Below are positions 12,732 through 37,539 of a stretch of 64,000 bases of DNA, piece by piece (the first letter of the stretch is position 1; each line of letters opens with the position of its first letter). A program made the position numbers and the translations under genes. The DNA comes from Blasia pusilla (Eukaryota). The DNA lies in NCBI GenBank assembly GCA_050084515.1, contig CM114271.1:35340001-35404000 (forward strand), written 5' to 3'. The notes under the pieces are model-generated. The model was not told the DNA's origin. It did no database searches and was given only the letters and a program-made list of their open reading frames with translations.

Positions 12732-13800
12732 ATGGCGATCGAGGGAGAACAACCCAAGAAGCGCCGAATCAAGCGACGTGAACCGAGAGAGGAACCAATG
12801 CCGGATCGTGAAGCTATAGAGAGACGGAGACTCGAAGAGCCTGAACGCCGATCGTGAGGGCGCCCCAGTGGCGACTCCTTCGCGGGGCGATGGGCTCAAA
12901 CTCGGGGAAAAGACGAGTCGAGCCAGACGTTGGACTTGTTGAAGGTGTTGGTGGAGCAGATGTCCCAAAGAAAGAAAGCGGATTGCAGAGTTAGAGGCCA
13001 CTCGAAATCCAGTGCGGGCAAAAGCTCTGCAAAGACAGAACCGCCACGCCATTTCTTCGGAGTGGGGCGCTCGCATGAAAGTGAAGGATTTTTATGAAAC
13101 TAGAAGCGTACTTCGAGGCGCAAAGGCTGCTGAAAGCGGGGACAAGGTGACGGTAGCCGTTACTTTCCTGAAGGATCATGCTCTACAATGGTGGAGTGCT
13201 CAACGAGAGGAATATCTGGGCGGCGAGTCACCTCTGAGTTGGGAGGAGTTCAAGGAGTTGATTGGGGATCGATTCACTCCGGAGTACCAAGGGTTGCGTG
13301 ACACGGTGGAATGCGTGCGGATGTGGCAGAGTGGTTCCTTAAGCACGTATGTGAGGGAGTTTAGTCGGCCGACTTCTAGTCCAAAGATGGATGAGCACGC
13401 GAAGAAGGCTATCTTCATTAGTGGACTCAAGCCGAGCGCTGAGAAGGCCCTTTACCGAATGCCGACGTTGGAGGAGACCTGCGCGGACCTTCTGACGCTA
13501 GCGGAGCGGATTGGGGACGATGAGGTCCAAACCCAGAAACCCTTCGAGTCAAAGGTTTTTCGAAGAAGTCGAAAAATAAGGAGGCGTTCAAAAGAGGCTG
13601 GAGTGGGGCCGGACGAACCAGAGAGTAAATGCGCGGCAGCAAAATGAGTGGAACTTCATGCGAAGACGAAAGGAGGACAACACTCAAAGACAGGAAACGG
13701 CAAGGTCGTATGCTACAACTGTGGCGAACCGGGGCACCTGTCGAAAGGGTGTTCGAAACCGAAGGTTAGTAACGGGAGTATGATTGCGTTTCTTTGCTAA
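12732..13800 (+). pseudogene. Gypsy gag, frameshifted
   Basis: FLKDHALQWW...LSWEEFKELI.DRF..E capsid-like motif, and zinc knuckle CYNCGEPGHLSKGC at ~13711-13752. Confidence 0.8.
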
Positions 13801-13857
13801 GCATCATCTGTCGGCGATCTTGAGACGTCCCTTCAAGTCACCAAGAGGACGCACAAT

Positions 13858-16330: not shown

Positions 16331-19039
16331 GAAGGGTACTACATTGGCACGAACATGACAAGCGACGGCAGATCCCTGGACTAACCAGGAAGTCTGTTCC
16401 AAGTCTTGAAGGACTTGCCATGTGTTGGGAGCTAGGAACTAAGGAAGGTTGAGCTTGATGAGACGCCGAGTTGAGGACTCGGTGGGTTGGAACGCCGGTT
16501 GGCCAAACCCGACTAATGAGTGTGTGTTTGGGTGCAGATCGGCGATGAGTTCGTGACCTACTGAACGCACGCTTCCGCAACACTAAAGATTGACGTTCAA
16601 GGAGAGTAGGGGCGCGATAGAAATGGACATGTCCACGGACATGCCGTGCAGGTATCCACGGCCGAGCGCATCCCTGAGCCTGTCGCCTAGACCCGGCCAT
16701 GTTGGCCAAGCCCACACTCGTTTTGTGGCCCACATGCAAACTACAGCCAGACCTGTAGGGTGGGCCTGACGATTGCGAGCCAGATGTACCCGGCTTCGGA
16801 CGAAGTTGTCTGTATAGATCAACACAGACATGTGTCCGTCCCTAAGAAGGACACGTACTTTGTAAGTAGGATGCAACCCTTCTTGCATCCTACTCTTGTG
16901 GGATGGGAGCTCTTCTCAAGTCCCGCTTGATGTTTAGTCTTGTATTGTTGAGTGATGGCCTTTATCATTTGAGAAGCCCATCAAGGCTTGCTTCTCACTT
17001 CTGCAACTCATGTCTCTTTTGAGAGACTCCAATACGCTTCCGTCCTGGTGTGAGCCTACTAGAGTTCTAATGTTCTGCGTTGGTGCGTGTTTGGTTATCT
17101 CGTGTCTTTTAGTATAGATCAACAAGTTTATGGTAGAGCATCTTTGACGATAGTGGTGGACAACCTAAAGAGGTCGAGGATGATGTCACGTCTTTTAGGA
17201 TAGATCGGTGAGATCTAGTAGAGCGCCTTCGTGAGTAGTGGATGACATGCCCAGTAGGTTGTGGATGACGTGTTGAGGCCCTGGGAAACCTGAGAGAGCA
17301 GGTTTAGGGTTCCCCTAAACGAAGCGGGAACCTGCTCTCTCAGGTTTCCCTTCGTTTCGGCTCATTTAGAGCCATATTGAGAAACTTACTATTTTAGGTA
17401 AGTACCATTTTGAGTATATGATCGACTTTCTTTTTTTGGTAAGTGGCTCTTGACCTCCTAAATCAGGTCAAGAGCCAAGGAGGTGACTTGGGAGAATAGG
17501 TTACCATGGAGAGAGGTTGGGAGAGGGGAGGGGTATACCTCAAGGAGAGAGAGTTTGAGAGCTCATTCTCTCTTTATTGAACCTGTTGGCATGAGGTGGC
17601 GGAGCTATGGTCCCTTGCCTTGTGAGTGTAACCCAATCCTCTCATTAGGAGAGTGGGCTTGGTTTGACATGAGAGAGAGAGTGCACACCTTTGAGAGCTA
17701 TGGTGTGAGATGGTGTAGAGAGAGATTGGATCTTACTTTACAAAGAGAGAATGAGAGAGTGAGAGAGCTTCATGGGGGAGCTTGCTGGTCACTCGCTGTA
17801 TTTGCAGGATGGGGACCGTGTTCCCCCTTCAACGGCTCATAGGAGTGCTCACCGAGCAAGGGCTGCTTTGATTGTTCTTTGCATTTTCTGATTTTTTGTG
17901 TGGAAGAGTGGCGTGCGGAAGCGCTGCCCAATTTCTGATAGGGATTGATTATGGGGGCGGGTTGCCCCATGCTAGTGCTCTCGGGAGCACCATGTAGCTT
18001 GCTGATTTTTTTTCTTACAGGTTTTACATTTTGGTTTGGAGAAATCAGCGCGGAAGCGCTCCCAAATTTTGTGTAGGAGAAAGAGACATTGGGCTTTACG
18101 ACAGTCCCCTTCAGTTTTTACTGGAATGTCCAATTCCAAATATTTTTTGACGCCGTCGTAGATCGTGAAGCTGTGCACGTTGTGCAACAAACGGTGCACA
18201 ATTTGGACTACGAGCAGAAAGTTATGGCCAATTTTGTAAATTTCCAATTTTAGGGTAAAAATCAAAACCCTAAAGCAGCAGCCGCCGTTGGCGGCGCTGT
18301 CACCGTCGCCGCCAGCCAGGCCATCAACCCGTCGGCCATGCCGTCAACCCTTCCCCAGGATGTCAACCCTTTGCCAAGCCCTTCAACCTGTCAACTGGCC
18401 CATTACCCGTCAAGCTGCCGTCAACCGACTGGAGTACTACTCTGGACGACGTGTGACCCAGTGATGTATGGGGTCCAAGTTTTCTAGCCGCATTTCTATG
18501 TTTTGAGTTGGTAGCCACTCCACAAAGATCGAGTACCGTGACGTGATGCCCGTAGCCGCAACGCGCCGCCAATTTCCGCGCTGTGCCGCTCGTGGCCGCA
18601 CCGCACTGTCTCGATCGCGGAGCCGCACCGTCATTGTGGAGCAGATTGTGTTTTGCTGGTTTGAGGAGTTTGTCTCCATGACCGAGTTGGGGTTGAGATT
18701 TTCAATTGCTGAGGAGCGACATCGACATGTGTTCAGGTTACCCATTGTGGTCCTTTATCCTGCATGCGTGAGGGATTTTGGGATTTGGGTAGTTTATTTG
18801 GGGATATTGGGTTTTGTGGATGCTAAGAGCATCATTTATGTATGTGGTTTAGGGGACATAGACCTATGTGGGATGTCTGGAGTTGAAGGTAGGTTGTCGA
18901 TGAGATGATAGCCTGGTCAATTTGCCGCACCACGCCGCTTGTTGCCGCACGTTACACGTCTCGGGGAGGGAGAGTTTCGAGGGTCTCCACGTGAGAGACC
19001 ACCTCGATCTCCTTCTGTGTCGTCTTCAGACAAGGGGGA

Positions 19040-21500
19040 GCGTGTAGAGGAGTGTGTTAGTGATCTACCGTACACATTGAGTGGTCCTACTAGTTGGGCA
19101 TACGAGATCGACGACCGGGGTAGGGGACCGCGTAGGTTTTCGGGTGCTGTAGGCACCATAGAGCTACACGACTTCATTGCGGAGTTTAGGAGTTGGTGTG
19201 ACTCACAGCGGGCTAGGAACTCTAGAGAGTTCAACCCGTTTCAGCATGGAACGGTATATTCCAACATTTAGAGGGGGCACCCATGGACGATTACCATGAG
19301 TTCTCCCACATATATGCCCAGGAGATTGAGGCATGGCGACTCTACTACGACCCACATTACGTGTCATGGACAGAGCCATTCCCAAATGAGGAGGAGGAGT
19401 AAGGAGAGGCTACTTCATCTTCCACTAGTGATGTGCTAGGAGGGGTGAGTCGGACTGGGGCAGTTGCATCGTCCAGTCGGGTTCGTCCTAGGTTCAACCC
19501 TGTGGTTGAGTTCTTTGCTAAGTTGAGGGTGAGCTACCATGGGGTAGGGACGGAGAAGTTGCGGAGCATCCACGACTTCCAGAGGCGCCTAGGTGAGAGT
19601 TTGCGTGAGGCTTACACTCGCTTCCGCCGGTTGATCAATGTCACTCAGGGGGTGACAGAGGCTCAGGCTATCCAGTCATGGTATGCTGGACCGGACCCTG
19701 CGGACACGGGTGCGGGAAGGGGTGCTTCTTATGAACACCTCCCCTACATTGAGAGATGTTTTTAGAACCGCCGAGAACATTGAGCGCAACATGGCGGATG
19801 AGAGCGTAGCCACCATGGGTTCTGGGCGAGACCAGTCGCGATTTTATGCACCATGTGAGCAGCAAGGTGGACTCCGAGATAGGTCGACTGTGGCACCACG
19901 AGCTCAGGGAGGATACCGGGAGGCCGTGCCAGAGAGACTTGCGCCTTCATATGCGACTCAGCAGCAGCCGCCTACTATTACTTGTTGGTCATGTGGTGGA
20001 GCCCATCATCAATGCGATTGCACTCGTCAGGGTCATGGACGTGTGCCTCAGCATGGAGGAAGAGATGGTGCTGCACTAGGAGGTTATCAGTGTGACTATT
20101 GTCAGAGGTATGGTCATACACGCGCCAGGTGTTTCAGTTTATATCCTGAGTTACGTCCGGACCGAGGGCCAGAGAGGGAACCAGAGGGAGTAGCTGGTCC
20201 GGGTGGGCTAGAGATCATGCTCCAAGTGGTCCCGTTGGGGGACGAGGAGCTGGAGTTGCCCGACACAATGGTGGAGCTGCCCATGGAGGAGGTAAAGTCC
20301 TACCACCTAGACGCGTCGAGGGAGATGTCGGGCGTGAGGCTAGGATGGCTGCTCAGATACATCAGCTACAGGACCAGATTGCCACTATGGCATTGAGATT
20401 ACCCGATGCCGGATCCGTGGCATCGACATCATATGGAGCAGCCAGAGATATGGAGGATCCTGGTTGGATGTGCGGGATTGCCCATATGGATGCAGCCGCA
20501 GTTGTGACGCGTGGAGCAACTGTAGAGTTGGATCCACGGGGGGAAGCCACGAAACAGACTAGGCTTCCTCAGTCTTTCACGTTTTCCGAGGCAATGAGGA
20601 CCCCATTGATGGGTCCTGATCAAAGTTCTGGAGAGTTGGTGATGTTGTTGGTGTGCAGGCACGGAGGGCGATGGGAGAAGCAAGTGCAACGACTCCTATT
20701 GTTGATGCTTAGGAGGGGCATTTGTTGAGCACGTTGTTGGGGGCCGCCACCATTGTGTACCGCGCTCCTTTATTTTCTGCTTCCTATGTTATGACGTTGG
20801 GGGGTCACCCGCCGAGGCTTTTCGGCTGGCCGCTACACTATGTGAGCGTGGAGTTGGAGTTCCTTCATCATGTTCAGAGGTGATTGCAGAGGAGGTGATG
20901 GACGTGCCCTTGAAGCGGATGCTCGGGCCGTCCACGTCAGATTCATGGCAGGCTGCGGCTACTAGGATGGCGGAGATGCCCGCTAGACCCGCGATAGAGC
21001 GTGCCATGGCTTCTCCTGGTGTTGTGTTCTTTGGATGGCGAGGAGAGGTCTTCGAGTTGGTGAGTCCCGGAGGTAGAGCTTTCAGTCCATAGCACGTCTT
21101 GTTGGATTCAGGAGCGCAACCCCTGATGTTGGGGAAAGCGTCATTTAGAGGATTGGGCTTGACGAGAGCCGATGTGGAGCGTTGTCCATTCTGGATGCAG
21201 ACATCCTTGGGTGGAGCAGTATATCACCCGACAGGAGGTCATGGTGAGGATTCGTCCAGGACATCCTACAGATGAGTCCGTGGTGCGAGCCAAGGCGATA
21301 GTGACTGATGCAGAGTCCTACGACGTCTTGGTTGGTGGAGTAGTGTTCTACCCGATGGATTTTTCCTGGATTACTGGGAAGAGTCAGCGTCCTATAGACC
21401 AAGATGGCAGTCATGTGATGGGCGCCTTAGCTCATTATCCGTTCGATTCACATGCGCACTGATCGAGCAATGGCCAGGAGAGATGGTGACCTTAGCAATA
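19040..21500 (+). pseudogene. E1 gag and protease, disrupted
   Basis: RRFSGAVGTIELHDFIAEF.SWCD, two zinc knuckles CWSCGGAHHQCDC and CDYCQRYGHTRARC, and protease VLLDSGAQPLM (~21096). Confidence 0.8.
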
Positions 21501-21806
21501 TTTAGCAATGCCATCACTTGGCCTAGTGATTTTATTGGGGTACATGTCCATGCACAGGATACTCCCGTTCCTCACATTTCTATGGAGAGGAGTGTCATGG
21601 TAGCCGTATCATTCCGTGGAGGAGAGGTGCCGTTGTAGGGCTTGATTGAGGAGGTTCGACGATTGGCAGATGAGCACGTGCAAACCGCGTGGAGCGAGGC
21701 GTTTGCACTAGAGCATGATGGGTCTGAGGAACCTGAGGTAGTAGGGAGTGCTACAATGACACCCTTGGATACCACACCCATTGTGTGGTGTATCCCAGAG
21801 GAGGGT

Positions 21807-23769
21807 ATTCGAGTGTTAGATCTCTTTGGAGGGATTAGCACCTAGTTAGCTGTTGTTTTGCAGGTAGGAGTGCAAGTATAGCTCGTATGAGGGTGAGTGC
21901 TTGGCTGCGGTGTGGGCTGTCGCGCATTTCAGATGTTACTTATTAGGCAATCCCTTTACCATCCTCATTGATCATCAACCACTGAAGTGGTTGATGGAGT
22001 CCGACAAGCTTACAGGGAAGCTTGCGAAATGGGCTCTGTTCTTGCAGGAGTATGATTTTCAGGTGGTACATAGACTTGGGATGCTCAACCAGGATGCATA
22101 TGGGTTGAGTCGTAACCCATGTTCGAGTCAGCGAGATGCAACTGGAGCTCGATGGCATGGAGAGAGTGATGAGGAGTTAGTGCCAGGATGGCACGCGTCA
22201 GCCTATTTAGGCATGTTGGCTATGGAGAGCCAGAGTGTGGAGACTTCGATGGCGAGGTCTAGTAGAGAGTCCTTGGATCCCGAGGCCAGTGAGGAGACGA
22301 CAGATGGCCGAGATATTCATGATGATGGAGTAGTGCGAGCGAGCACCGTGAGTGCTAGAGAGCGGGATCAGATCCTACAACGGGCCACACGATTCCGTTG
22401 GGAGGGGACACATGTTTTGAGGGTTTGGGAGGATGGCAGAGTACGCATAGTGCCGCATCCTTTGTAGAGAGCACGACTAGTGCAGCATGCCCATGAGGAG
22501 TTGGGTCACTTTGGGGTGAAGCGGACGTACAGCTTGCTCTAGATTCAGTATTGGTGGCGAGGCATATAGACTGACGTTCAGCAGTTTGTTGCTAGGTGCA
22601 TGGTGTGTGATCGGGTCCGAGCATCGTTCAATGCTCCGACTCCACAGTTGCATCCATTATTGATCATGGGCTTAGGGTATAGATGGATTTTGGATTTTGC
22701 AGGACCTTTGCCTTTGACGGAGCGTCACAGTCGTTATGTGTTGGTGATGATCGAGCACTTCTCGAAGTGGATCGAGTTGGTTGCATTGCCTAACAAAGCG
22801 AGTGAGGGAGTAGCTTATGCCTTCCTTGAGAGAGTGCTGAGTCATTATGGCGCATCGGTTGAGGTGTTGACAGTCCAGGGTACTGAGTTTTGCGGTGAGT
22901 TCCAGGCCTTGTGTGATCAGGCGTCGATCGACCATCGCACGACTTCGAGAGATCATCTCGAGGCGGATGGATTAGCGGAGAGAGTTATGTAGACGGTGAA
23001 GAGGGGTTTATGTAATTATGGCTTGCAGAGAGGTCACCTAGGAGATTGGGACCTACAGTTGCCCTGGTTGGCGATGGGATACAGATTCAGTAGGCAGACA
23101 TCCTTAGCATCTTTTTCACCGTACTTGCTACTTTATGGCCAAGAGCCAGATTTACCTACGGCCATTCATCGAGATGTTGGTGAGGTGCTGGACCATGATG
23201 ACCCAAATGTATGGATGCGAGCATGTTCTCAGAGGGCTGAGTTGTTTCAGAGATTGATGCCCATGGCGTTCGAGAACTTGGCGATTGCGCATCTATGAGA
23301 TACGTTGAGGTATGCGACTATTCGGGGTGGTGATTATCGACCAACTATCCGGAGGTTTCATCAGGGAGATTATGTCTACTTGTAGCAGACGGCACCGACG
23401 ACTTTGGATGTAAGAGCAGGGCGCACTATCCTGAGAGTGCGTGGCGTTTTGCCATCCGGTGTCCTCTTGCTGGAGGGACGCGATGGTATGGTATGGAAGG
23501 ACCATGTGCGTAATTATGCGCCATGTCACCTTCCTAACATTGATGGTACAGTAGATCCGAGCTTAGTAGTAGTTTCTGCAGGCTTGCATTGTATGTTGTG
23601 TGGTTCTGCCCATGGTGCGGCCACGATGCTAGTCTATGATGGATGTTCGAGAGGTTGGCATATGGCATGTCTGACGCCACCTCTCACTAGGATTCCCCAG
23701 GGACGATGGATGTCCCAAATGTACATAGAGGAGATACTAGGTAGGTTTCGATTCCGACTTTTTTTGTGA
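21807..23769 (+). pseudogene. E1 pol remnant: DNMT motif I joined by deletion to RNase H C-part, integrase and PHD finger
   Basis: IRVLDLFGGIST* is followed directly by YSSYEGECLAAVWAVAHFRCYL. IN: HEELGHFG..CMVC, LDFAGPLP, DGLAER. PHD: CMLC..YDGCSRGWHMACL.PPL...P.GRW. Confidence 0.85.
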
Positions 23770-26700
23770 CATGGATGACAGGAAGGCGACTAACGATGGG
23801 GCCACATGAGCACCCGACCTTCTTGCTCTTAGCGCCCCAGAGATGTATGTCATGGTAGGTAGGGATAGATGGCTATCTGGAGTTAGAGGGACCTAACCAC
23901 CAGCTAAGGGGGCGATTGGAGATATTTTAGCACTTCTTTTCTCGTTATTTGGATGTCATGAGTTAGCATGGGATCGTTTGTGTTTGTGTGTGTGTTCGGT
24001 GACAACAATGTATGTTGTGTAGCGATGTGTATGCGCACGACATCTATCACGTCTTATAGGATAGATCGGTGAGATCTAGTAGAGCGCCTTCATGAATAGT
24101 GGAAGACACGCCCAGTAGGTTGAGGATGACCTGCTGAGGCCCCGGGAAACCTGAGAGAGTAGGTTTCCCCTTCGTTTTGGCTCATTTGGAGCCACATTGA
24201 GAAACTTACTATTTGAGGTAAGTATCATTTTGAGTATATGATCGACTTTCTATTTTTGGTAAGTGGCCCTTGACCTCCTACATCAGGTCAAGAGCCAAGG
24301 AGGTGACTTGGGAGAATAGGTTATTATGGAGAGAGCTTGGGAGAGAGGAGGGGTATACCTCAAGGAGAGAGAGCTTGAGAGCTCATTCTCTCTTTGTTGA
24401 ACCTGTTGGCATGAGGCGGCGGAGTTATGGTCCCTTGCCTTGTGAATGTAACCCGAGCCTCTCATTAGGAGAGTGGGCTTGGTTTAACATGAGAGAGAAT
24501 GCACACCTTTGAGAGCTATGGTGTGAGATGGTGTAGAGAGAGATTGGATCTTACTTTAATTGGAGATATTTTAGTACTTCTGTGTCGTGTGTGTTTGTGT
24601 GTGTGTTTGGTGACAGCGATGTATGTTGTGTAGCGATGTGTATGCGCACGACAGTGATCTGCTAAGGCCTCGGGTAACCTAAGAAAGCATGACATCAATA
24701 TTTTTGCAACCCACCAAAATTCCCATTGAGAGCTTCACTTAGTTTCTCGACAGAAAATAAATTGGTTTGTTTTATGAGGTAGTGTTGTCATTGAGTTCAA
24801 TTTTTGCAATGGAAGCTCTCGATTGTTTCCAAAACATATTGACCTTTTCAAATCCATTTTGGAAATGTCTGAATTCAACCGGCCAACTCTATAAAGAAAC
24901 ATGATTATCTCCTATTTTTATCAACTTAAACAAAACATAACTTTATTATTAAGGAAAGATAGTTTTTGATTTGCAAACACCCATTTTTTTGACACATGGA
25001 AATGGGGCAGCAAGAATATGTTTAAATATCACATGGAATAAGAAATGAATTTTTGGATAGTATGATTATTAGTTTTGTGCAAAGCATCTATAGGAGTGTC
25101 AAGTGAGACACTATGATAAAAAAAAAAAAGAGGGGGTTTAGGGTTTAGCGCATGGGGGCTGCTCGACTTGCCCACGGAACATGCGATAGGTTGGATCTTT
25201 AAGACTCAACCCTAAGACTTCTATGTGCAAGACTCGAGATTGGGATCTATTCTCGGGTAAGTGAGAAAGAGTAGAGTTTGAACTCTACAACGTAGTAGTA
25301 TAGATGGAAATTTACAATTGAAAAATGAGATTAGAAATTGCATCTATTAAAAAATCCTCCTTAACTACGAAATATTGAACAATCATGGAGGACACTTCAT
25401 TCCCATATATGATGTATATGTTTAGGCGATGGATTTACCCTATCCAACAGCCATCAGAAACCAATTATGTTTCAAGTAAGCTCTAGCCCCAAACTTTCCA
25501 ATCCTATTTTTTACTTCATTTTTGGAATTCTCCCTCTTCATGGTTGCACAAAAATGGACAAGTAAGTCCTTGGGATAGACACGAACAGACAAATTTGGAC
25601 ATGTCCACGAATATGGATTGCAAGAGGTGGGGTCCACATTTATATCTTATGATGGAAGGTAGGCCAAAGGCGAGTGGGGTAATAAGGGGGGGAGGGAGTG
25701 GAGGTGGAGGAAGGAAGAAGCGGGAAAGTATGGAACATGAAGGAAAATGGAGGGAATGAGAAAGAAGGGGAAGATGGGATCGACATGGACAAGTCCTTCT
25801 ATAGCACGAACGTAAATCTACGGATACGGATATGTCTGCGCACCCGGACTTTGTCCATATTCAATCTTGTCCCTCTTTGACTACTTGACATAATTTCACA
25901 AAACTCAACCATTTGGTACATCTCAAACTTGGGACTTCATTTAAATATTTAGTTGGGATCACATGAATGTTTCAAATTATCCATTTTGTAGATAGGTAGA
26001 TAGTTTGTTTCTTTGTTTCTTTCTTTGTTTATGTAAAAGTCATATTTTTAGATTTTATTTTTACTTTCACTATTCATTTTTCTTGATGATAAATCTTTCA
26101 TTTTCATAACATATCCATACATACCATGTAAAAATTTTCAACCGAAATGGTCATGGTGGTAGTAGGCTACTAGGCTTTCATATTTCACAAAGGAGAATTA
26201 GATTTATAGCCATTAGAATTCAAGATAAACTTTTTTGGTTCTCTTTCAACTACAAAGTGATCATGAATCTTTAGATATGTCCCAAATTTGGATGGATGAT
26301 AATGACTTGTCCGTTTTTGTGCAACCATGCACATGGCATGACCATACAATTTTCAAGAACTTGGAATGATTATGGTCATGATAGTATTAGGAATATCATA
26401 CTTCATAAATTAGAGATAGACTTGACATTTAATTTCGAGGAAAAGACCATTTTTTGGACTTTCAAGATGTCACATCTGAGTAGCCGATAGGCCGAGATCT
26501 ATCGTGGATAGGGCGTAGGAGCCAGCGGACTATCTTGAGTGTAACTTTGTCCCACGGTGTCGGATGAGGTTGAGGATAGGTCCATTGTGTCAGGAACGTC
26601 GTTTCTGACAACTTTCATGTTGAGGTCTTTTACATCCGGGTGACTTGTTGACCAGGTCACCCGCCCTTGGTAACCTGTGAGCGTAGGTTACCAAGGGAAG

Positions 26701-27914
26701 GGCTATTTTTAGGGGAAGAGCCTTTTGGCTCTTCCCAACCCTATATAAGAGAGGAAGATGGCTTTCCTAAGCCATCTTTCTCATGTTGGGCCGTTGGAGC
26801 ACCTCCCTTGTATGTGTGTGAGCTAGGACTAGGGTGCTAGCGTCCGGATTCCTTGATAGCACAGGGTGGACGAGGCTCGATATGGCGATGTAGATAGAGG
26901 AGTGGAGTTTTAGGCCGAGTGTGCCGTTTTTACTACTCTTTATTTTTACATGAGAAAGATGTCAGGGGGTTGGTGGGAATTCGTTGTTTGCAGGTAGGCA
27001 AGCAAGTTGCCTTGGTCGGGAGCCCCTGGAGACGTGTGTGTGACGTTTTGTGTGTCATTTTCTGTTCGGAAGGCCGTGGGCGGAAGCGCTGTCCGTTTTT
27101 CTCAGATTTTGTTGGTGCGATTGATGGGGGACAGCAGCAGGGTGTAGCGCAGGTTGTGTCGGCAGGAGTAACGTCGTCTTATAACTCGTGGAATGTCGGG
27201 AGTACCCAAGGAGAAGAGTTAGAGCTTGCAGCCGCCAGGGAGCTGTCAAGTAAAGCGGCTGGTCTAGGGTTTAGCCGGGGCGGCGACAGGCGGCGCGGCG
27301 GGAAACAAAGCGGTGACGGCGCCCCCTCCTCCCCTTCCCCCATTTATTTCCCTCCCCAAAAGTTGGGGAGGCCCATAGGGGTGTGGGCCAGGGCGTTGCG
27401 AGAGTTGACGATGGTGGGGCAGTGTGCATGATGCCGACGGGTGGTCCGCATCTGTTGACGGGAGGATCGACGTGTTGGTCGAGGGGAGTGTTGTGTTGCG
27501 GAGATTGTCATCTACGCAACATGTGTTGTGTTGCGGAGGTTGCCGAGCAGGGGTCGCGTGTATGACCCGAGAGAGTGTCGCTAGGTTGAGCGTGCGTGAG
27601 GCCGGGTATGTCATCACGGGATTGATGTTAGCATAGGTGAGCTAGTGAGGCATGTGGGAGACTCTCGGTGAGTGTGAGTGCTTGAGCGGGTGAGACAGGG
27701 TTTGTCATCACGGCGTTCTTCAGGGTTGAAGAATGGGGTAGTCGAGTAGTGGTAGTGGTGTGACACGGGTGGAGTGAGATACTGAGGGGTTACTAGTGAG
27801 GAGCTCCTCGACATCCATCCGTGATTGGATTGTCATCGACACCGGAGTGCAGTGACGAGATCACGACAAAACGATAGTACTTGGCAGGAGATGGACGACA
27901 TGGGCCATTGAGGC

Positions 27915-30260
27915 ATGCGGCGTTTCTCGGGTGCAGTGGGCACCATCGACTTAGATGATTTCATCCAGGAGTTCAACACATGGTGCGACTTCCAGGAGAT
28001 ACGGACCCCGACACGGTTCAACCCTTTCATGGCATGGAAGGGTTGTTCCAAAGACTTGGAGGGTCCCAGATGGATGACTACATGGAGTTTCGATCACTAT
28101 ATTCAGTAGAGATTGATGCTTGGAGGATGTATTGGGCTCTAGGGTATGTGTCCACTAGTGGTCGCGAGGCATATGATGGGATTGTGAGAGGAGAGAGACC
28201 CACACCATCAGCCCGGAGACTAGATGGAGAGGAGGGCAGTGAGACAGGCAATGTGGCAGAGACCTCTGGTGGTAGAGGGCCACCTAGCTTCAGCCCCATG
28301 TTGGAGTTCTTCCGACAGTTGGAGAAGAGCTACCGGGCGTGCATTGAAACACAAGCTGAAGAGTCTACATGATTTTCAGCGGACGATCGGGGAGAGTCGA
28401 GAGAGGCATTCACACGCATGAGGAGGCTGATCATTGCTACGTTTGGAGTGATTGAGACGCAGTCAGTCCAGTATTGGTACGGGATTATGGACCGAGAACT
28501 ACAGAGGAGAGTCCAAGATGCGATGATGATTCACACAGTGAAGCCCACATTGAAGGTGGTCTTTGAGTTGTCTGAGCGTATTGAGCTCAACATGAGTGAG
28601 GAGCAGGTAGTGACCGCTGGATTTTTCGAGAGTCGACGGGTCCACGGCGACCGTGACCCCACAGTGCCCAAAGCAAGCACCGATACCACCATGGGAGCGG
28701 GCGGTGTGCCTAGAGAGCGGGCGGTACCGTGAGCCTATGAGGCAACGACCCGCACCTACATATGTTGCCCAGCACGGACCGATGTGGTCTTGTTGGATGT
28801 GTGGAGGGACCCATAGGCAGAGAGACTGCCCACAGCATGGGAGAGGACCACCATCGCCTCCAATTGCTCAGGAGCCACAGAGGATGGCCCCACCACAGCA
28901 CCACTGTGACCATTGCCACAGATATGGTCACACTAGGGATAGATGTTTTGACCTTCGTCGAGGGGCACGCCCAAAGGTAGGCCGAGGGCCTGGGGCGGCC
29001 GCCCCTGGAGGAGGTTGGGGAGTTCTTCTGGACATGGTGGTAGAGGACCACCACCAGCCGAGGAGGAGATAGAGCAGAGCACCGAGTCGGCACTTCTCTC
29101 ACGCATCGATCGGTTGAGCGGAGGATTGCTGCCATGACGATGATGCGGCTTAGGAAGGCACGGAGTGTGAGCGGCTAGTGTGACTCGATCTCTACCTCTT
29201 ACCCTAACCCGGGTGAGATCTCTCAAAGTATGGGATTTATGTGTAGTGCAGCCAGGTTGAGGCGGTATAGTGGTGACTCGGGGTCTTTGCGAGAGGCATC
29301 AAGCCATCGAGAGGTGGAGTTGAGATTGACCCACCAGAGGGGACCGATGGGCGGCGAGCCAGGGTTCCACGATCGTTCACATTGTCGGAGGCACTACACA
29401 CACCATCGATGGTGCCTCGGCGACCAGCGGTGCCTCGATTGGGCACCTCGTCGGCGTCACGAGGAGTTGGAGTGACAACTCCTATCTTTGGCTCGAGTGG
29501 AGTCGGTGTCGACCATAGTGTTGGAGGTGGCCACCGAGTGAGTCGACTCCGCTATTTTCCGCCATAGAGTTGGCGGCGTTGGGAATTGGACCAAGCGAGG
29601 TGTTTGGTTGGCCGCCACGTTGTGTGGCGTGGAGAGATGGCGCTTCTTGTTTAGAGGTAGTTGAGGAGGTGGTGGACTTGCCCTCAGAGCGGTGCTTGGG
29701 GCGTTCCCACGAGTCATGGCATCTGGCGGCGGAAAAGTTGGTAGATATGCTAGCTCGACCGGCCATAGAGCGGCAAGTGGTGACACTGGAGTAGTATTCT
29801 TTGGATAACCGAGCTAGAGTATTTCGCTTGGTTAGTCCGACGGGGATAGTATACCACCCGCAGCGCGTCCTACTTGATTTGGGAGCGCAACCCTTGATGT
29901 TAGGGAAGGCGGCATGCTTAGTGTTGGGGTTACGGAAGGCCGACATTGAGCCTTGTCCCTTCCAGATACAGACCTCGATTGGGGGCGTATCACCCACTCA
30001 ATATATGACTCGATAGGAGATTGTTGTCAGAATCCAGCCAGAGCATGCGACGGATAGTGTTATGGTGCGCACACATGCGATTACGACACCATCTGAGTCG
30101 TACGATGTGTTGGTGGGGAGTACCGTGTTATATCCCCTAGGATTCATCCTTGACTTCTGGGAGGAGACCGTTGCCTATCAGCTGGGATGGCGGTCAAGTG
30201 ACAGCCGGATGAGTCAGTTACCCGTGCAGTTTGCGAGATGAGGTGGTCGATCACGAGGCG
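27915..30260 (+). pseudogene. E2 gag and protease, disrupted
   Basis: RRFSGAVGTIDLDDFIQEFNTWCD, knuckles CWMCGGTHRQRDC and CDHCHRYGHTRDRC, and protease VLLDLGAQPLM. Homologous to E1. Confidence 0.8.
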
Positions 30261-30613
30261 AGTCTGTGACCACGTTGGCAGCTTTCACACGTAGTGTTAG
30301 CTGGCCAGGAGAGTTGTTGGAGGGGAACGCACATGCGGAGGATGTCCCAGTAGCGGAGGATGTCCCAGTAGCGGATAGTCCCACGGAGAGACAGGCCATG
30401 GCGGGTGTCTCTTCCCATGTTGGCGAGGCCTCTTCACCATTGTGGGGTACGACTCGGGAGCTACAGAGGAGTGTCGAAGACCTCGTGAGGCAAGCGTGGA
30501 GTCATGTTTTTATCCCAAAGCCGCGAGAGTCATGTGGCGATCGGGCTCTTGGAGTGGAGAGGATGACCCCACTAGATACCACACCTGTTGTGTGGCAGTG
30601 CCCAGAGGAGGGT

Positions 30614-31560
30614 GTTAGGGTGTTAGATCTCTTCGGAGGGATTAGCACCGGATTGGCTGCACTATTGCAGGCGGGCATACGGGTGCATCAGTACCTTTAT
30701 GTGGAGAGAGATGAGACCGCGCGGCGAGTATCATTACATCACATGGCGAGATTGGTCCAGAGGTATACTGAGTTGTTGTCGGTATCTGCAGTACGGGGAT
30801 ACCAGCATAGGCTACCCGCCGACATCTCTTTGGTGGGGGCGCAGGATCTGGATAGAGTTGGCACCATTCATTTGGTGATTGCTCGATGGCCATGTCAGGG
30901 TCATTCATCAGCTGGCTGAGGATTTGGATTGCAGGATCCGAGGTCAGGGATGTTTTGGGAGATGATGCGAGTAGTACGACACTTGCACGAGAGTCAGATA
31001 TTTTCTCCAACATACATTTTGGAGAACGTGCCATTGTTGGGAGACACTCGTGCACGTGTGATGACCAGTGTACATCAGGTGAGGTCCTGGTTGGGACCTG
31101 CTGTGCTGTTAGATGCAGCGAGAGTTGGGTCACGTGCCCATCGTCCACGACTGTGGTGGACAAACTTGATACCATCAGAAGTACTAAGTCGAGCATACAA
31201 TGGAGTCCAGAGAGCACCACATCTTACAGTGTATGCTATTTTGGGCTCAGGGCGTCGATCTCACGTGGTGACACGGGATGATAGACCACCGTTGGCCATG
31301 GCCAATAGGGTGGGGGAATTGAGGGCAGCCTTACCTACGTTGGTGAGCTTCCCAGCATCCCATGCCTTTTGTCAGGGAGGGCCAGGCATGATTTGGGATG
31401 AGGTGTCCGGAGCATTGGAGGAGCCTACAGCACATGAGCGTGAGCGCGCCATGGGGTTCACTACCGGTACTACGGCGGTGCCAGGGATGACTGAGGCATC
31501 ACGGAGACAAGTGTTGGGGCAGGCGATGGACCTCAACTGTCTCACATGGATAGTCAGCCT
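30614..31560 (+). pseudogene. C5 cytosine DNA methyltransferase domain (DNMT3-like) within retroelement pol, one in-frame TGA
   Basis: Motif I VLDLFGGI, II YVE, IV WPCQGHS, VI ILENV, VIII AHRPRLWWTN, IX ERERAMGF, X LGQAM. ORFs 30266-30919 and 30929-31822 are in the same frame, separated by TGA at 30917-30919. Confidence 0.9.
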
Positions 31561-31864
31561 AGGTATGGTGAGCGAGAGACGGATACGAGTGTCATCCATG
31601 CCGTCACGCCCACGAAGTTGGACCATTGCCTATGAGGTATGTCTGAGGCATTGGTGGGGCGAGACGAGGAGAGATAGGCACCCATGGACTTCCTGGGACG
31701 TCGTTCGAGCAGAGAGTGCGAAGGCGGCTAGAGTAGCACATGTTCATTTTTCGGATGTGGAGCATGGTGTAGGAGGTCACAGTGGAGTGGTTGTTGCAGA
31801 GGTGGCTAGGGTTGCTACATAGCAACCAAAGCCAAAGGTTGCGTCCTCTCCGAGTGAGGTCACG

Positions 31865-34800
31865 ATGGAGACTTGGGAGCCTGTGATAGGTCTCAAGTTG
31901 ATAGGAGGAGAGCGACGGCAAGTTCATAGGTTTCTGAGAGGGCATGTCAGTTGTTTTGCCTTCAGTATGAGAGACTTGGGTACGCTGAAGGGTCCCGGGA
32001 TACGGATTGAGTTGGCTAGTGATACGTCGATCTTTTGTCGACCCTCAGTATTCGATATGGAGCGAGCCTTGATTGAGCGAGGAGTCGAGGACTTGTTGGA
32101 GGCAGGACTTGTGGAGTTATCACATGGGGAGTATGCATCTGCCACAATCATGCCGGCGAAGAAGGATATGTATGGCAATTGGACAGATAGGCGGATGTGT
32201 GGAGATTACCGTCCTATCAACCGACAGACGAGGTCAGATCGGTATGCCATGCCTACTCCTGAGGAGATCTTTGATGCGGTAGGGCATGCAAAGATCTTGA
32301 TAGATTTTTAGATCTCCGTGTTGGCTATCATCGACTTCCTATCAAGGTTGGAGGACAGGGAGAAGACGAGCATTTTGGGGATAGATCCGTTCGGGAGAGA
32401 TTGCTTGTATTAGTGCGGTTCTTACCATTTGGGTTGAAGAACGCGCTGCAGAGTTTCAGAGAGTGATGGATAGGATTAGGTGGCTTGGATTTTGTACAAT
32501 GTTACATAGATGATATTCTTATCTTGATTCCACGGTTGAGGAGCATGAGCGACACTTGGAGGAGGTGTTTGGCGATTGCGATTACATGGACTGAAGTTAC
32601 ATCCAGCAAGTGCAGATTCTTTTCAGGAGCAGATTGAGTACTTGGGACACACCATATACCCGAGTGGGTTAGGCGTTCAACAGGCGAAGGTAGAGGCTAT
32701 TGCAGATTCCACGCCCTAGAGATGTGAGTCGAGTCCGAGCATTTCTTGGACCGGCAAACTTCTATCGACGGTATGTCAAGGGTTTTAGTGTGTGATCGCA
32801 AAGTCTTTGACCTTGTCGCGAGACTTGATCAGGTTTGGTTGTGGGGAGATGATCGGGAGCGAGCATTTCAGAGCTCAGGACAGGTTGGCGTCCTCACCCA
32901 TTTTCTGAGAGACCGGTTAGGGTCGCCCATTCGATTACATACAGTTGGAGCATGTTGGGTCTAGGAGCAGTGCTTACTCAGAGGGATAACGAGGAGAGGG
33001 AGTTCGTTGTGGCTTACGCGAGCCGATTGAACAACATTGAGAGGCGAAGTACAGCTCCTACGAGGGAGAGTGCTTGGTTGCAGTGTGGGTCGTGGCACAT
33101 TTTAGGTGCTATTTATTCGGCAACCCTTTCACACTTATCACTGATCATCAGCCGTTGAGGTGGTTGATGGAGTCCGACAAGCTTACGGGAAAGCTTGCCA
33201 GGTGGGCTCTATTACTACAGGAGTATGAATTTGAGGTGGTTAATAGGCCAGGTTGGCTGAACCAAGATGCGGATGGGTTGAGTCGTAACCCATGTCCAAG
33301 TCAGAGAGACGACACAAGAGCTCGATGGCACGGAGAGAGTGATGAGGAGATGGTGCCCGGTTGGCATGCATCTGCCTATCTTTGTTGGTTGACTATGGCA
33401 GGTCAGCCACAGGTGATGACTCCAGTGGTGGGGTTGGATGATGAGTCTTTAGATCCGGAGGTTAGTGAGGAGGCGACAGGTGGTCGTGATATCCATGACG
33501 ACGTGGAGGTTGTGGAGTTCTTGCGCACTGGCGTCATTGCGAGTACAATGAGTGCTAGGGAGCGGGATCGGATCCTACAGAGAGCCAAGAGGTTCAGGTG
33601 GGAGGGGACTCACATTTTGCGGGTATGGGGAGATGGTAGGATACGAGTGGTACCTCATCCTTCCCAGCGAGCATGTGTAGTGCGACATGCCCATGAGGAG
33701 TTGGGACATTTTGGAGTAAAGCGTACTTACAGCTTACTCTAGGTTCAGTATTGGTGGCACGGCATGCATACTAGGGTACAGTAGTTTGTGGCCACATGTA
33801 TGGTATGTGACAGAGTGTGAGCATCCTTCAATGCTCCCACTCCGTAGTTACATCCTTTGCCGATTATGGGTTTAGGTTATCGGTGGAGTTTAGACTTTGC
33901 GGGACCTTTGCCATTGACAAGGCGTCATCATAGGTACGTGTTGGTCATGGTGGAACATTTCTCCAAGTGGATAGAGTTGGTGGCACTACCGAGACAAAGC
34001 GCGAGCGAGGCGGCTTATGCGTTTCTAGATCGTGTGCTTAGTCACTTTGGTGCACCGGCGGAGGTGTTGACTGACCAGGGTACCGAGTTCAGGGGAGAGT
34101 TTCAAGCCTTGTGTGATCATGGGCTCCACGTCCAGAGATCATCCTCAGGCGGATGGGTTGGCGGAGAGAGTGGTACATATGGTGAAGAGAGGATTGCGCA
34201 AGTATGGCTTGCAGCGGGGACAGTTGAGGGAGTGGGACCTACAATTGCCATGGTTGGCTATGGGTTATCGCTTTAGTCGGCAGGCATCCTTGGCGTCATT
34301 TTCACCGTACTTTTTTCTCTTTGGGAGAGAGCCAGATTGCAGCCATTCGACGTGACATGGCGGAGGTGTTAGATCTTGATGATCCATATGTGTGGGTCCA
34401 AGCATGTTCTCAGAGGGCAGAAGTTTTTCGTAGAGTTATGCCTATGGCCTTTGAGAACTTAGCTATTGCCCAGCATAGAGATACATTGAGGTATGCGACC
34501 ATTCGTGGAGGAGGTTATCGTCCAGGGATTAGGAGGTTTTATCCTGGAGATTACGTGTATTTACAGCAAGCGGCACCCACGATGCTAGATGTCACTGCAG
34601 GGCGCACAATCCTACATGTGCGCGAGGTATTACCGACCGGAGTCCTCATGTTGGAGGGACGGGATGGTATGGTTTGGAAGGATCATGTGTGCAATTGTGC
34701 GCCATGTCATCTTCCGAACGTAGATGGGACGGTGGATTCGAGCTTGGCAGTGGTACCTGCAGGCTTGAGGTGTATGTTGTCCGGATCTGCGAGGGGTGCA

Positions 34801-34911
34801 ACCACCATGTTGGTATGTGATGGTTGTTCTCGAGGGTGGCATATGTCATGTCTGATCCCTCCTCTTGATGTGGTTCCCACGGGACGATGGATGTGTCCGA
34901 GATGTGTATAG
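31865..34911 (+). pseudogene. E2 RT-RNase H-integrase-PHD, disrupted
   Basis: RRMCGDYRPIN, LPFGLKN, CYIDDIL (RT). VVAYASR, WVVAHFRCYL, TDHQPL (RH). HEELGHFG..CMVC, LDFAGPLP, TDQGTEF, HPQADGLAER (DDE IN). PHD CML..CDGCSRGWHMSCL.PPL..VP.GRWMCPRC at 34771-34908. Confidence 0.9.
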
Positions 34912-37539
34912 GATAGTAGGTCATGTCAGAGAGATGTGATATTTTCTATCTGGAGTTGGGGGATCAAGCGCCAACTAGGGGCGGTTGTGTGATCTCCATG
35001 TATATGCATGAGTTGATTTTTGTACATGTGTGGATCGACCCGTGTCTGGGGAAGATCGATGTTGTGTGGTGTAGATTTGACGAGCGATGTATGTTGTGTA
35101 GCGATATGTTTGCGCACGACAGCTGTCACATCTGAGTAGCCGATAGGCCGAGATCTATCGTGGATAGGGCGTAGGAGCCAGCGGACTATCTTGAGTGTAA
35201 CTTTGTCCCACGGTGTCGGATGAGGTTGAGGATAGTCCATTGTGTCAGGAACGTCGTTTCTGACGACTTTCATGTTGAGGTCTTTTACAGCCGGGTGACT
35301 TGTTGACCAAGTCACCCGCCCTTGGTAACATGTGAGCGTAGGTTACCAAGGGAAGGGTTATTTTTAGGGGAAGAGCCTTTTGGCTCTTCCCAACCCTATA
35401 TAAGAGAGGAAGATGGCTTTCCTAAGCCATCTTTCTCATGTTGGGCCGTTGGAGCACCTCCCTTGTATGTGTGTGAGCTAGGACTAGGGTGCTAGCGTCC
35501 GGATTCCTTGATAGCACAGGGTGAACGAGGCTCGATATGCCGATGTAGATTGAGGAGTTTAGTTTTAGGCCGGGTGTGCCATTTTTACTACTCTTTATTT
35601 TTGTTGTGTGATCTCCATGTATATATATGAGTTGATTTTTGTACATGTGTGGATCGACTCGTGTGTGGGGGAAGATCGGTGTTGTGTGGTGTAGATGTGA
35701 CGAGCGATGTATGTTGTGTAGCGATATGTATGCGCACGACAAAGAGCAAAGTGAAATAAACCCATTGAATGAGTCACGAACTTGGGAGGTTTGTTACAAG
35801 GGTCATTTTCAACACTCTAGATTCTTCACCTTTGGTTTCGATATTAATATAATGATACAAATATTTTAATTGCATTTTCACATCTCATTTTTCCCTTAAG
35901 AAAAACCCAACACATTCATGGCATGCCCCTACGTCCCCTCTATTACTCACACCAAATTTTTCAATTGTAATGAGAGGAATTTTAAAGTTCACAAAAGGGA
36001 GCGAGACTATTGACATTTTACTTTGAATTTAGAATTTTTAATTGTCTTGGGCATCTTTATATAATTGTGAGGAGATTCTCCACTTTCAATTTCAACATAA
36101 ATGACTTATATCTTGAAATTTGAGGTAAATTTTCCATAGTTATTTGGTTCCGTTTTCACAACTCATTTCTCTCAAAAAATGAACTATGAGGTCCCATGCC
36201 TTGCTTATATAGAACTTTCAGTATTTTGGTAATCCTAATGGCCATTATGAGTTATTGTCATATTATCAATACACATCAAAATCAATGATGGGATTTATCC
36301 TGAATTTGTGATACAAAAGTGATATTCCTACAAATGAAAAATTGGACATCTTCCAGAATAGTGATAGAAAGGTCAGGTTAATCGCCCTATCATGAATGAG
36401 GTGGTGTATTACAAATGTCGAGTTATAGCCCACGCTATGCACAGGTGAAAGATATCAATGTTACGACTTTAACATCTGTTAAACACTACACTTGTCAACA
36501 CTAGAGGAAGCAAAAATAGATCCATGTCAACACTAGAAGAAGGGGTCTTCAAACCACATCCTTTTTTGATTATATAAATTCCTAAGCCCGTAAGTCACTC
36601 GTTCACTCCGTTATGGAGACGACTGAAAGCTCGAATTCTGTGATATCTATTCCACTTTGGACATCACTGAAAACTTGAACCTTTGCCATCCAGTGACTTC
36701 TTGTTCTCCCCTCCCTTTGTGCATGCCAGGTACAAATTCTTCTTGTGCGGTATTAGAGTTCTTCTCTGGAATCTCTGTAAAGCTAGTAATCACACGCCCA
36801 AATGGAGTATCCACATCTGCAAAGGTGGGAATGGAGAATAGAGAGAACTAATCTCCAGGATGTACCAACCTGATAGGCAAGAATTATTGAATGAACCCAC
36901 GAAAGAAGTACCTAAAATTTGCAATGGTGGCAAGTGAAGACTGCTCTCTCGATGATATCAAGGTGCAACGAGAACTATTGAGTTCATCGATTGAGTATTG
37001 GGTATCCAGAGTCCACATTGGTATGAAGGGAGAATCACTGATTGCATAAGCAAGACAGATAACTACAGATAACTTTCCAGCAACAATCTCTGGTAGGAAT
37101 CATCCTCTGGTTTCTGATATAGAAGACATTCAACAAATGGATTTGATCTGCTGTGGAGATCAAATGTGGAATCCATTTGGAAAGGAAGAACATACAAACA
37201 ACATACTCTGTGCGAGGGGAAGCTCGCAACTCAAGCTCAGTACTAGCTGGGAAACCGAATGGATGACTGAAGTGCATGAGATCGGGCAACACGGGTAGCA
37301 TGATAAAGTGCGTGTTAACAGCTCACTTCATTCCCAAGAGTACTTCAGGGTCCATTCAATTCCTTATCTAGCCTTGGTGATAAAGCCAGGTAAGCATTAT
37401 CTAAGGATCTAGACCTAGTGACATGTTGCAAACATTTCAGTGGATATGTTTGACTGATGAGAAGCTTTCCCCACTGAAGAGAAGACTGAACTCTTGTTCT
37501 ATCCTTCAACTTTGCACTGATAGTTTTGAAGAGTAGTGT

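Follow-up and report, generated by a model that had tools for sequence, protein, structure and literature searches.

What is a cytosine methyltransferase doing inside a retrotransposon? Cytosine methylation is the main means by which plants silence transposons, so a transposon that brings its own de novo methyltransferase is a paradox. The stretch of Blasia pusilla DNA analysed here (64,000 nucleotides; contig CM114271.1 of assembly GCA_050084515.1, positions 35,340,001 to 35,404,000 of the forward strand; hereafter the window, with positions counted from its first letter) raises this question through E2, a 9.3-kb Ty3/Gypsy-type element at 26468-35741. E2 has the order gag, protease (PR), DNA methyltransferase (DNMT), reverse transcriptase (RT), RNase H (RH), integrase (INT) and PHD finger. 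We found that it is very probably a degenerate copy of a green-plant Ty3/Gypsy-type lineage in which a DNMT3-like methyltransferase is a regular coding part, maintained by selection.

A methyltransferase domain between protease and reverse transcriptase

The coding parts of E2 are arranged as follows.

27912-29072, + strand: degenerate gag with two Cys-His knuckles and several stops (tblastn match to residues 10-350 of the Marchantia protein P0083, in frames 3, 2 and 3)
29795-30241, + strand: remnant of the aspartic protease with stops at 30014 and 30239 (tblastn with the protease piece of protein P0104, match at 29858-30226)
30611-31591, + strand: DNMT3-like C5 cytosine methyltransferase domain, motifs I to X in canonical order, TGA at 30917-30919
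31823-33226, + strand: RT and RNase H, interrupted by a stop at 32309, the frame changing at about 32290-32560 (open reading frames and tblastn with P0104)
33659-34340, + strand: integrase, comprising a zinc-binding region and the rve core; the frame changes near 34130 and again near 34340 (tblastn in frames 2, 3 and 1)
34783-34905, + strand: PHD finger, C-terminal on the integrase (PF00628, 39.3 bits, cut-off 24)

A first-pass annotation, made from the letters of the window alone, had proposed a retrotransposon-borne DNMT3-like C5 methyltransferase at 30614-31560, in frame between protease and RT, with its motifs in canonical order, PCQ and ENV intact and a single in-frame TGA. These coordinates were right, and the proposal as a whole was borne out by the reading frame, the repeats that enclose the domain and the recurrence of the same order elsewhere. 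The domain lies in a frame of 526 residues (30242-31822) that is interrupted once, by the TGA at 30917-30919. Motif I (LDLFGGISTG) starts at 30614, the codon of the catalytic cysteine in PCQ is 30893-30895 and ENV occupies 31022-31030. An RxR-containing motif VIII is present, and 3' of ENV there follow, in order, GSRAHRPRLWWTNL, ERERAMGF (motif IX) and RRQVLGQAMDLN (motif X). When this frame was searched with Pfam, with X placed at the TGA, it matched PF00145 (DNA_methylase), the check that the annotation had recommended, with a score of 32.7 bits, above the curated cut-off of 22 (E 7.2e-08). In the alignment to its match in the Protein Data Bank (PDB), the motifs of E2 are colinear with residues 6-171 and 235-268 of a DNMT3A catalytic-domain chain. 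Across 34 sequences, the catalytic columns (PCQ, ENV, the RxR region and the residues of motifs IX and X) are at least 90% conserved. The suggestion that the TGA arose from CGA is plausible, although it was not demonstrated, as seven relatives have His (three), Arg (two), Val (one) or Lys (one) in that column. The domain is not a product of chance, because 31 independent metagenome loci and dozens of proteins in databases have the same domain in the same place.

Among the other coding parts, Pfam recognised RNase H (RT_RNaseH, PF17917, 68 bits on 33041-33226) and the integrase core (rve, 54 bits), together with an Integrase_H2C2 match of 19.5 bits that is below its cut-off of 25.5. A Pfam scan of the open reading frames of the protease remnant gave no match at E 0.01. 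A PHD finger likewise closes the polyproteins of the relatives.

The E2 copy itself cannot supply an enzyme, because its frame is not open: besides the TGA in the domain, stops and shifts of frame are scattered over the remainder of the element. Six in-frame stops lie between 29546 and 32311 (at 29792, 30014, 30239, 30917, 31820 and 32309), and the frame changes within gag, in RT and twice in the integrase. The active-site triplet of the protease (29876-29884) reads DLG, in place of the DSG or DTG of Marchantia and other relatives. The copy is dead and therefore does nothing itself; what follows concerns the lineage from which it came.

The domain is closest to DNMT3

The domain is, with high confidence, a bona fide C5 methyltransferase fold that is closest to the catalytic domain of DNMT3, a judgement that takes its identity and the architecture around it jointly. 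In a single-sequence phmmer search of the PDB, the first 29 of 47 rows were DNMT3A, DNMT3B or DNMT3C (best E 1.3e-7), whereas DRM and M.HhaI reached an E of only about 0.05. A profile built from 34 relatives matched DNMT3A at 92 bits (E 3.1e-25), followed by tobacco DRM (54 bits), HhaI (48), DNMT2 (46), Arabidopsis DRM2 (42) and DNMT1 (22). An AlphaFold2 model of the domain, made with the family alignment, had a mean pLDDT of 92.8 and a pTM of 0.91. When this model was compared with the PDB by Foldseek, all of the matches listed, to rank 50, were DNMT3A, DNMT3B or DNMT3C (best E 2.1e-19), with target-normalised TM scores of 0.78-0.84 for chains that consist of the catalytic domain only (272-291 residues) and lower scores for longer chains. 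Similarly, a structure search of the ESM Atlas with residues 290-640 of the Calypogeia relative P0001 returned, in rows 1-3, clusters of DNMT3 with ADD/PWWP domains (TM 0.73). The motif order is unrearranged, and thus the domain is not a DRM. Pfam found no match to the PWWP or ADD reader domains beside it, where the protease lies upstream, as expected for copies borne by an element.

A family with two layouts

The first-pass annotation had reckoned with the domain being absent from other copies of the family; instead, it is present in the metagenome loci and also within single proteins, such as the 2,358-residue protein P0104, which contains PR-DNMT-RT-RH-INT-PHD. A protein search for near-length matches gave 82 homologues, the best of which, from Calypogeia fissa, was 70% identical; those with organism names comprised 11 from Marchantia polymorpha, 3 from Calypogeia, 3 from Sphagnum and 1 from Riccia. 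A search for longer proteins gave 34 homologues, with 14 named from Marchantia, one from Sphagnum fallax and one from Closterium. The nearest relatives of the window copy are liverwort and moss copies. An exhaustive profile search returned 33,349 representatives at E 0.001 or better, including 624 clusters at 1e-30 or better; the names on 20 representatives that we looked up were a Scenedesmus sp. 'pol' protein and three Closterium proteins, with no other organism.

Scanning metagenome contigs gave 255 relatives, from which 80 loci were kept and their layouts determined by mapping the pieces of P0104. In 31 loci, DNMT is followed by RT, many of them with the protease in front, as in the window (layout 1). 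In 13 loci, the order is RT-RH-DNMT-INT-PHD (layout 2), which is also that of the Scenedesmus copy. The existence of two layouts means that the domain has moved within the polyprotein at least once. Layout 2 marks a second, larger branch of the family, with the loci L046-L057, L059 and L060 and the proteins P0109, P0121 and P0144 as members.

We built a FastTree phylogeny of 182 domain sequences, thinned at 72% identity from 249 full-length sequences (248 and the window) with five outgroups added, and rooted it on these five bacterial-like methyltransferases. All 177 element-borne domains formed one group with a support of 100, in a tree whose root is uncertain, given the long outgroup branch and the use of FastTree supports, which are weaker than bootstrap values. 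All 66 layout-2 rows fell within one 138-row group (support 94), 65 of them within its 135-row subgroup (support 92). By contrast, 14 of the 16 layout-1 rows lay outside the 138-row group; the other two, P0284 and P0278, were inside it, beside the 135-row subgroup. One group outside the 138 rows contains Closterium proteins. The window belongs to a seven-row clade (support 99) with Marchantia, Calypogeia and metagenome copies.

Two unusual proteins turned up in these searches. P0286, a metagenome protein of 1,417 residues, combines PF00145 with PF05869 (Dam adenine methylase) and recalls the 'EpiLTR' dual-methyltransferase elements. The gene model of P0115, from Closterium sp. NIES-54, fuses a Copia-type polyprotein to a Gypsy-type protease and a broken copy of this family's methyltransferase, and is probably a chimera produced by annotating across nested elements.

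A conserved stop separates the methyltransferase from reverse transcriptase

Past the stop at 31820-31822, RT starts in the same frame as the methyltransferase domain. The first-pass annotation had described the domain as in frame with RT apart from this stop. The shared frame stood, whereas the stop turned out not to be a product of decay, being conserved in 14 copies.

31820-31828, + strand: in-frame stop in the leaky-stop context TAG CAA CCA, at the boundary between the Gag-protease-DNMT open reading frame (ORF) and the RT-RNase H-integrase-PHD ORF

In the window and 16 loci we traced the reading frame onward from the domain's end as far as RT, with L004 and L019 frameshifted and unreadable; in nine further loci the script halted at a nearer, secondary stop. 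An in-frame stop was present at the homologous site in 14 copies, the window included, and the distant L058 reads through. The stop and the two codons that follow it are as listed here.

TAG CAA CCA: the window and L001
TAG CAA CCC: seven loci
TAA CAA CCC: two loci
TAG CAG TTA: L023 and L024
TAG TAG CCA: L035

The domains of L023 and L024 are only 48-49% identical to that of the window, yet they share the stop site. In L023, a single TAG separates a gag-PR-DNMT frame of 1,369 codons (976-5085) from an RT-RH-INT-PHD frame of 1,047 codons (5086-8229), with no other stop across 2,416 codons. Protein models of Marchantia and Calypogeia terminate at the homologous stop. The two codons 3' of it are conserved (CAA CCN or CAG TTA), unlike the linker around them. 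A review describes UAG-CARYYA as the type I leaky-stop signal, found in tobamoviruses among others (PMC5382211; published sources are cited here for the parts of their text that were accessible).

Because the stop recurs at the same site, the domain in this clade ends a Gag-protease-DNMT product, and RT-integrase probably needs readthrough to be made. The UAG at 31820-31822 is a conserved feature at which the domain closes the Gag-protease ORF. Programmed readthrough at this stop is a further step, which the codon context makes somewhat likely.

Selection and expression

Fifty loci were checked for stops, and 35 of them entered the codon analysis together with the window; the other 15 were dropped as frameshifted in the match or as duplicates. 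Between the window and 24 loci of the same layout, the rate of nonsynonymous change (dN) was 0.24-0.52 and that of synonymous change (dS) was saturated. The ratio of the two (ω) was 0.08-0.17 in the 12 window pairs in which it could be computed, where dS was 2.0-3.1, so these low values are rough because a dS above 2 is unreliable. Comparisons between lineages show a conserved domain (dN 0.24-0.31 with saturated dS). The open pair L023 and L024 gave a dN of 0.036, a dS of 0.253 and an ω of 0.14. The domain is open in 10 of 12 layout-2 loci.

The run search listed no RNA run containing the element. Three RNA-seq runs under the same species label as the best-matching DNA run each gave 162-189 reads on E2, of which 145-175 were only 95-99% alike; at this identity most of the reads come from other copies and say little about E2 itself. 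Some RNA reads fit only the 35 bases of motif IV at 30870-30904 and have unlike flanks (3, 8 and 8 with a difference at 30884; the loose-end rows for X21 and X22 list eight such reads each). When translated, these unlike flanks match the family around motif IV. These reads thus show low-level transcription of a diverged relative whose motif IV region is open. Word depth in the DNA run is very high over the whole element, which means that the genome in question contains many copies of the family. Open copies and transcripts of the family exist.

Repeats and ends of E2

E2 is bounded by repeats of an unusual arrangement, A-coding-B-A-B, with TG...CA ends and a 4-bp target duplication.

26464-26467, + strand: left target-site duplication AAGA, identical to the four bases at 35742-35745
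26468-26947, + strand: repeat A1, the left terminal repeat, 480 bases, starting with TG
34975-34983, + strand: purine-rich run resembling a polypurine tract, directly 5' of B1
34984-35121, + strand: repeat B1, 138 bases, with a CA end, two bases (35122-35123) before A2
35124-35602, + strand: repeat A2
35603-35741, + strand: repeat B2, the right end of E2, with a CA end followed by AAGA (35742-35745)

A1 and A2 differ little (467 matches, 12 mismatches and 2 gaps over 481 positions), so the insertion is of no great age, and E2 was probably a defective copy by the time of its insertion. B1 and B2 show 131 matches, 7 mismatches and 1 gap. The same A-coding-B-A-B layout was found in the neighbouring element E1 and in L038 (1676-10805), an unrelated metagenome locus. 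The purine-rich run before B1, which has a similar counterpart 5' of the B1 repeat of E1, may prime DNA synthesis.

In its PR-RT-RH-INT order, TG...CA ends and target duplication of the 4-5 bp class, E2 is a Ty3/Gypsy element. It is not bounded by two identical long terminal repeats (LTRs), as its left end has A alone and its right end has B-A-B. We tried the standard LTR model with the LTR taken as B+A or as A+B, and neither fits the left end in E1, E2 or L038. A candidate for a tRNA-primer-binding site, a stretch beginning with TGG 24 bases after A1 in E2, is missing from E1, and we make no claim for it. Scanning the window with Rfam and for tRNAs gave no hits. The inner joint between B and A has the form CA-NN-TG, which resembles an end-to-end circle junction. 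Repeats like those of DIRS and Ngaro elements are thus combined here with a DDE integrase, and the standard LTR scheme does not explain how such an element replicates.

Neighbouring elements

An older relative of E2, here called E1, lies upstream on the same strand.

17184-24653, + strand: element E1, A-coding-B-A-B, with flanks ATGA and GTGA
17184-17740, + strand: E1 repeat A1
about 23915-24042, + strand: E1 repeat B1
24047-24558, + strand: E1 repeat A2
24559-24653, + strand: E1 repeat B2
21756-21864, + strand: E1 remnant of DNMT motif I with an internal TAG, 79% identical to E2 at 30563-30671

E1 retains the linker and motif I and then passes directly to RNase H at 21868, about 2.4 kb (motifs II to X and RT) having been deleted. 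The first-pass annotation had noted that E1 keeps motif I and had concluded that the capture predates the split between E1 and E2. Its observation is correct, with the TAG inside the motif, and its conclusion holds by a wide margin, given that liverworts, mosses, Closterium and Scenedesmus all have related copies.

A third Gypsy-type element, with gag, protease, RNase H and integrase and without a methyltransferase, lies just upstream of E1 (12943-16099), so that within 24 kb the + strand has three Gypsy-type elements arranged head to tail. GC skew is strongly and continuously positive (0.12-0.27) across 12001-36000, which is the block of + strand elements, and about zero in the flanks. E1 and E2 show an excess of CpA (observed/expected 1.3-1.8) and a moderate depletion of CpG (0.64-0.77). 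An AT-rich flank at 52316-53676 contains two families of short direct repeats, dispersed or in tandem, with 166-nucleotide copies 518 apart and 127-nucleotide copies at 53264, 53509 and 53550.

Discussion

How would an element of this kind use its methyltransferase? With a leaky UAG, the majority of ribosomes would yield Gag-protease-DNMT and a minority the full fusion with RT-integrase. The methyltransferase would then be made at Gag levels, together with Gag and protease, and would be released, or retained as a fusion, in the particle where cDNA forms. There it could methylate the new double-stranded cDNA of the element, or else the DNA of the insertion site, and a new copy would come with the host mark already on it. 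PHD fingers are readers of histone tails, and the one on the integrase would help to choose chromatin. That the enzyme serves to methylate the element's own cDNA, an idea already published by de Mendoza et al. (PMC5890265), is a tentative proposal that we regard as possible rather than probable. By placing the enzyme with Gag and not with RT, the leaky-type stop makes a prediction that bears on where and when the enzyme acts.

Several observations weigh against the reading of E2 as a copy from a lineage with a selected methyltransferase and a readthrough stop. Regarding the stop, an exact fit to CAR-YYA is found in only 4 of the 14 copies (the window, L001, L023 and L024), 9 of the 14 read CAA-CCC with the last base off, P0104 and L058 have no stop at the homologous site, and a search for a conserved RNA structure 3' of the stop found none (seven weak pairs, no covariation). 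As for selection, to the roughness of the low ω values are added stops in the domain in 33 of 37 layout-1 loci and a young, mostly dead cluster with an ω of 0.14-1.04 (median 0.53, 198 pairs). The first-pass annotation had allowed for neutral evolution across copies; this does not hold between lineages, whereas the young dead copies within the cluster approach an ω of 1. Constraint along the active lineage with neutral decay of most insertions is the usual picture for transposons. In the three RNA-seq runs there were almost no reads on 30443-31686. The protein similarity searches returned only copies borne by elements, with no canonical DNMT3, DRM or Klebsormidium sequence among them, and 'DNMT3-like' is a best-match ranking and not a phylogeny, the tree being one of element-borne domains with bacterial-like outgroups. 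Lastly, the sole Gypsy-DNMT3 domain assayed in yeast, that of Klebsormidium, gave no methylation in the published account, a result that its authors call inconclusive (PMC5890265).

Two other explanations would take the arrangement in the window as an accident. The domain could be a piece of a host DNMT3 gene, either lying beside a retrotransposon or interrupted by one, or the assembly could be chimeric; nested elements are common here, as the three Gypsy-type elements within 24 kb attest. However, the domain shares its frame with protease and RT and is enclosed by one set of repeats with a target duplication, 31 loci and single proteins show the same order, and no PWWP or ADD domain flanks it, which together leave this explanation with next to no credibility. 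Alternatively, the stop at 31820-31822 could be ordinary mutational damage and the methyltransferase part of one continuous Pol frame, as the five other in-frame stops of E2 between 29546 and 32311 and the copies that lack the stop (P0104 and L058) might suggest. This is very improbable, since the homologous stop is present in 14 of 14 copies that could be followed, including L023 and copies only 49% identical in the domain, the Marchantia and Calypogeia models end there, and the next two codons are conserved where the linker is not.

The remaining alternatives accept the element and dispute its history or the use of its enzyme. The bryophyte elements might owe their methyltransferase to a capture separate from that of the Klebsormidium Gypsy-DNMT3 elements, in which case the likeness would be convergent: the accessible text of de Mendoza et al. 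(2018) places the Klebsormidium acquisition 'in the K. nitens lineage' and describes repeated captures elsewhere, Klebsormidium was absent from all of our search results, and the domain sits at two different places in related elements. Against this, the 177 element-borne domains form a single group with full support in which the layout-2 rows are nested within the 138-row group, the spread over Scenedesmus (a chlorophyte), Closterium (Zygnematophyceae), liverworts and mosses fits one old family, and the unusual A-coding-B-A-B repeats and DDE integrase are shared with the published description, so we consider independent capture distinctly unlikely. Slightly less unlikely, although still improbable, is that the domain is kept for another role, such as RNA methylation, marking of host chromatin that dampens the element's own activity, or a non-catalytic module for DNA binding or scaffolding. 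The lack of DNA methylation by the Klebsormidium domain in yeast would fit such a role, and RNA methylation and benefit to the host were both raised by de Mendoza et al. in the text available; DNMT2, an RNA enzyme, is among the profile matches at 46 bits, and the PHD finger with which the domain is paired is a chromatin-type module. However, conservation of the catalytic motifs at 90% or more in 34 sequences argues for catalysis, and neither sequence nor fold has a match nearly as good as DNMT3, which acts on DNA.

The reading that we prefer, a DNMT3-like methyltransferase as a regular part of a green-plant Gypsy-type lineage, could be taken one step further. The bryophyte and Zygnematophyceae elements might form a distinct Gypsy-DNMT3 variant in which DNMT moved from Pol into the Gag-protease frame, ahead of a programmed leaky UAG, came to be produced in amounts like those of capsid protein and became a stoichiometric component of the particle, with members that are still active in liverworts and add de novo methylation to host genomes, including that of Marchantia polymorpha. 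We put this forward as a speculation with rather less than an even chance of being right; if it is true, the role of transposon-borne DNMTs would be directly testable in a land plant. Elements of the Gypsy-DNMT3 kind are abundant in liverworts and mosses, with relatives also in Closterium and Scenedesmus, and at least 25 Marchantia polymorpha protein models, annotated merely as hypothetical proteins, belong to the family. Marchantia is genetically tractable, so the role of the enzyme could be tested there.

Comparison with known systems

Knowledge of transposon-borne DNMTs dates from 2018 and covers dinoflagellates and a single charophyte alga, and the function of the Gypsy type has not been demonstrated. 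The first-pass annotation had pointed to this precedent, and it is real: de Mendoza et al. (2018, Nat Commun 9:1341, PMC5890265) describe KnitGypsy-Dnmt3 from Klebsormidium nitens and, from Symbiodinium, SymbioDIRS-Dnmt3. In its accessible parts, a 2025 paper speaks of DNMT3s 'embedded within retrotransposon structures', and the EpiLTR preprint (bioRxiv 10.64898/2026.05.21.726589) sets its own elements apart from 'streptophytes (Gypsy-DNMT3)'. Our literature search found no paper on methyltransferase-bearing elements in bryophytes, although supplements of the 2018 and 2025 papers may list some. Marchantia, Physcomitrella and liverworts all go unmentioned in the text of de Mendoza et al., whose supplements may include land-plant copies; the accessible text of a classification of plant LTR elements (PMC6317226) mentions neither methyltransferase nor PHD nor Marchantia.

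Host DNMT3 enzymes, namely DNMT3A, DNMT3B and DNMT3C of mammals and the moss DNMT3 (Yaari et al. 2019, PMC6453930, as far as its text was available), resemble the E2 domain as its best match in sequence and fold and in having the same motif order. Identity over the Foldseek alignments is only about 20-22%, and the stretch from motif VIII to motif IX, counted from the PDB alignment, is about 25 residues longer in E2. Whereas the host enzymes have PWWP/ADD readers, the E2 domain lacks them and sits in a retrotransposon polyprotein.

The EpiLTR elements, as far as the accessible part of the preprint describes them, are like E2 in being LTR-type retrotransposons that combine DNA methyltransferases with a chromatin-reader domain. 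They have a Dam-type adenine methyltransferase, a DNMT4-related cytosine enzyme and a chromodomain, whereas E2 has one DNMT3-like domain and a PHD finger.

The stop of the E2 family has its closest parallel in the type I leaky stop of tobamoviruses, as given in the available text of the review (PMC5382211). The element stops UAG-CAA-CCA (the window and L001) and UAG-CAG-TTA (L023 and L024) fit its form UAG-CARYYA, and in both cases the stop divides an abundant upstream product from the polymerase, by a readthrough that for the elements is predicted from sequence. They differ in that nine of the fourteen element stops are followed by CAA-CCC and two are TAA.

SymbioDIRS-Dnmt3, according to the accessible text (PMC5890265), shares with E2 a DNMT3-type domain in the RT polyprotein and the repeats given there for DIRS elements as 'A-coding region-B-A-B'. 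Two domain orders coexist in it, as they do in the E2 family (PR-DNMT-RT and RH-DNMT-INT). SymbioDIRS-Dnmt3 uses a tyrosine recombinase, whereas E2 combines TG...CA ends and a target duplication of 4 bp with an integrase of the DDE type. The dinoflagellate DIRS enzymes, SymbioDIRS-Dnmt3 domains included, methylated CG in yeast, in contrast to the Gypsy type, for which no activity has been demonstrated.

The nearest parallel to E2 is KnitGypsy-Dnmt3, a likeness that we draw from its published description and not from a comparison of sequence or domain order. According to the accessible text, both have a DNMT3-related, unrearranged and intronless domain inside a Gypsy-type coding region, and both combine Gypsy-type domains with DIRS-like A-coding-B-A-B repeats. 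Both are also under purifying selection, with a Ka/Ks below 0.2 in Klebsormidium and the ω values given above, between lineages and for the open pair, here. The host of KnitGypsy-Dnmt3 is an alga, whereas the host here is of bryophyte type; its domain is described as part of the Pol polyprotein ORF, whereas that of E2 ends the Gag-protease-DNMT frame at a UAG. Thus, the Gypsy-DNMT3 kind of element is already known from Klebsormidium, and the position of the methyltransferase before RT and the conserved stop that follows it may make E2 a variant of that kind.

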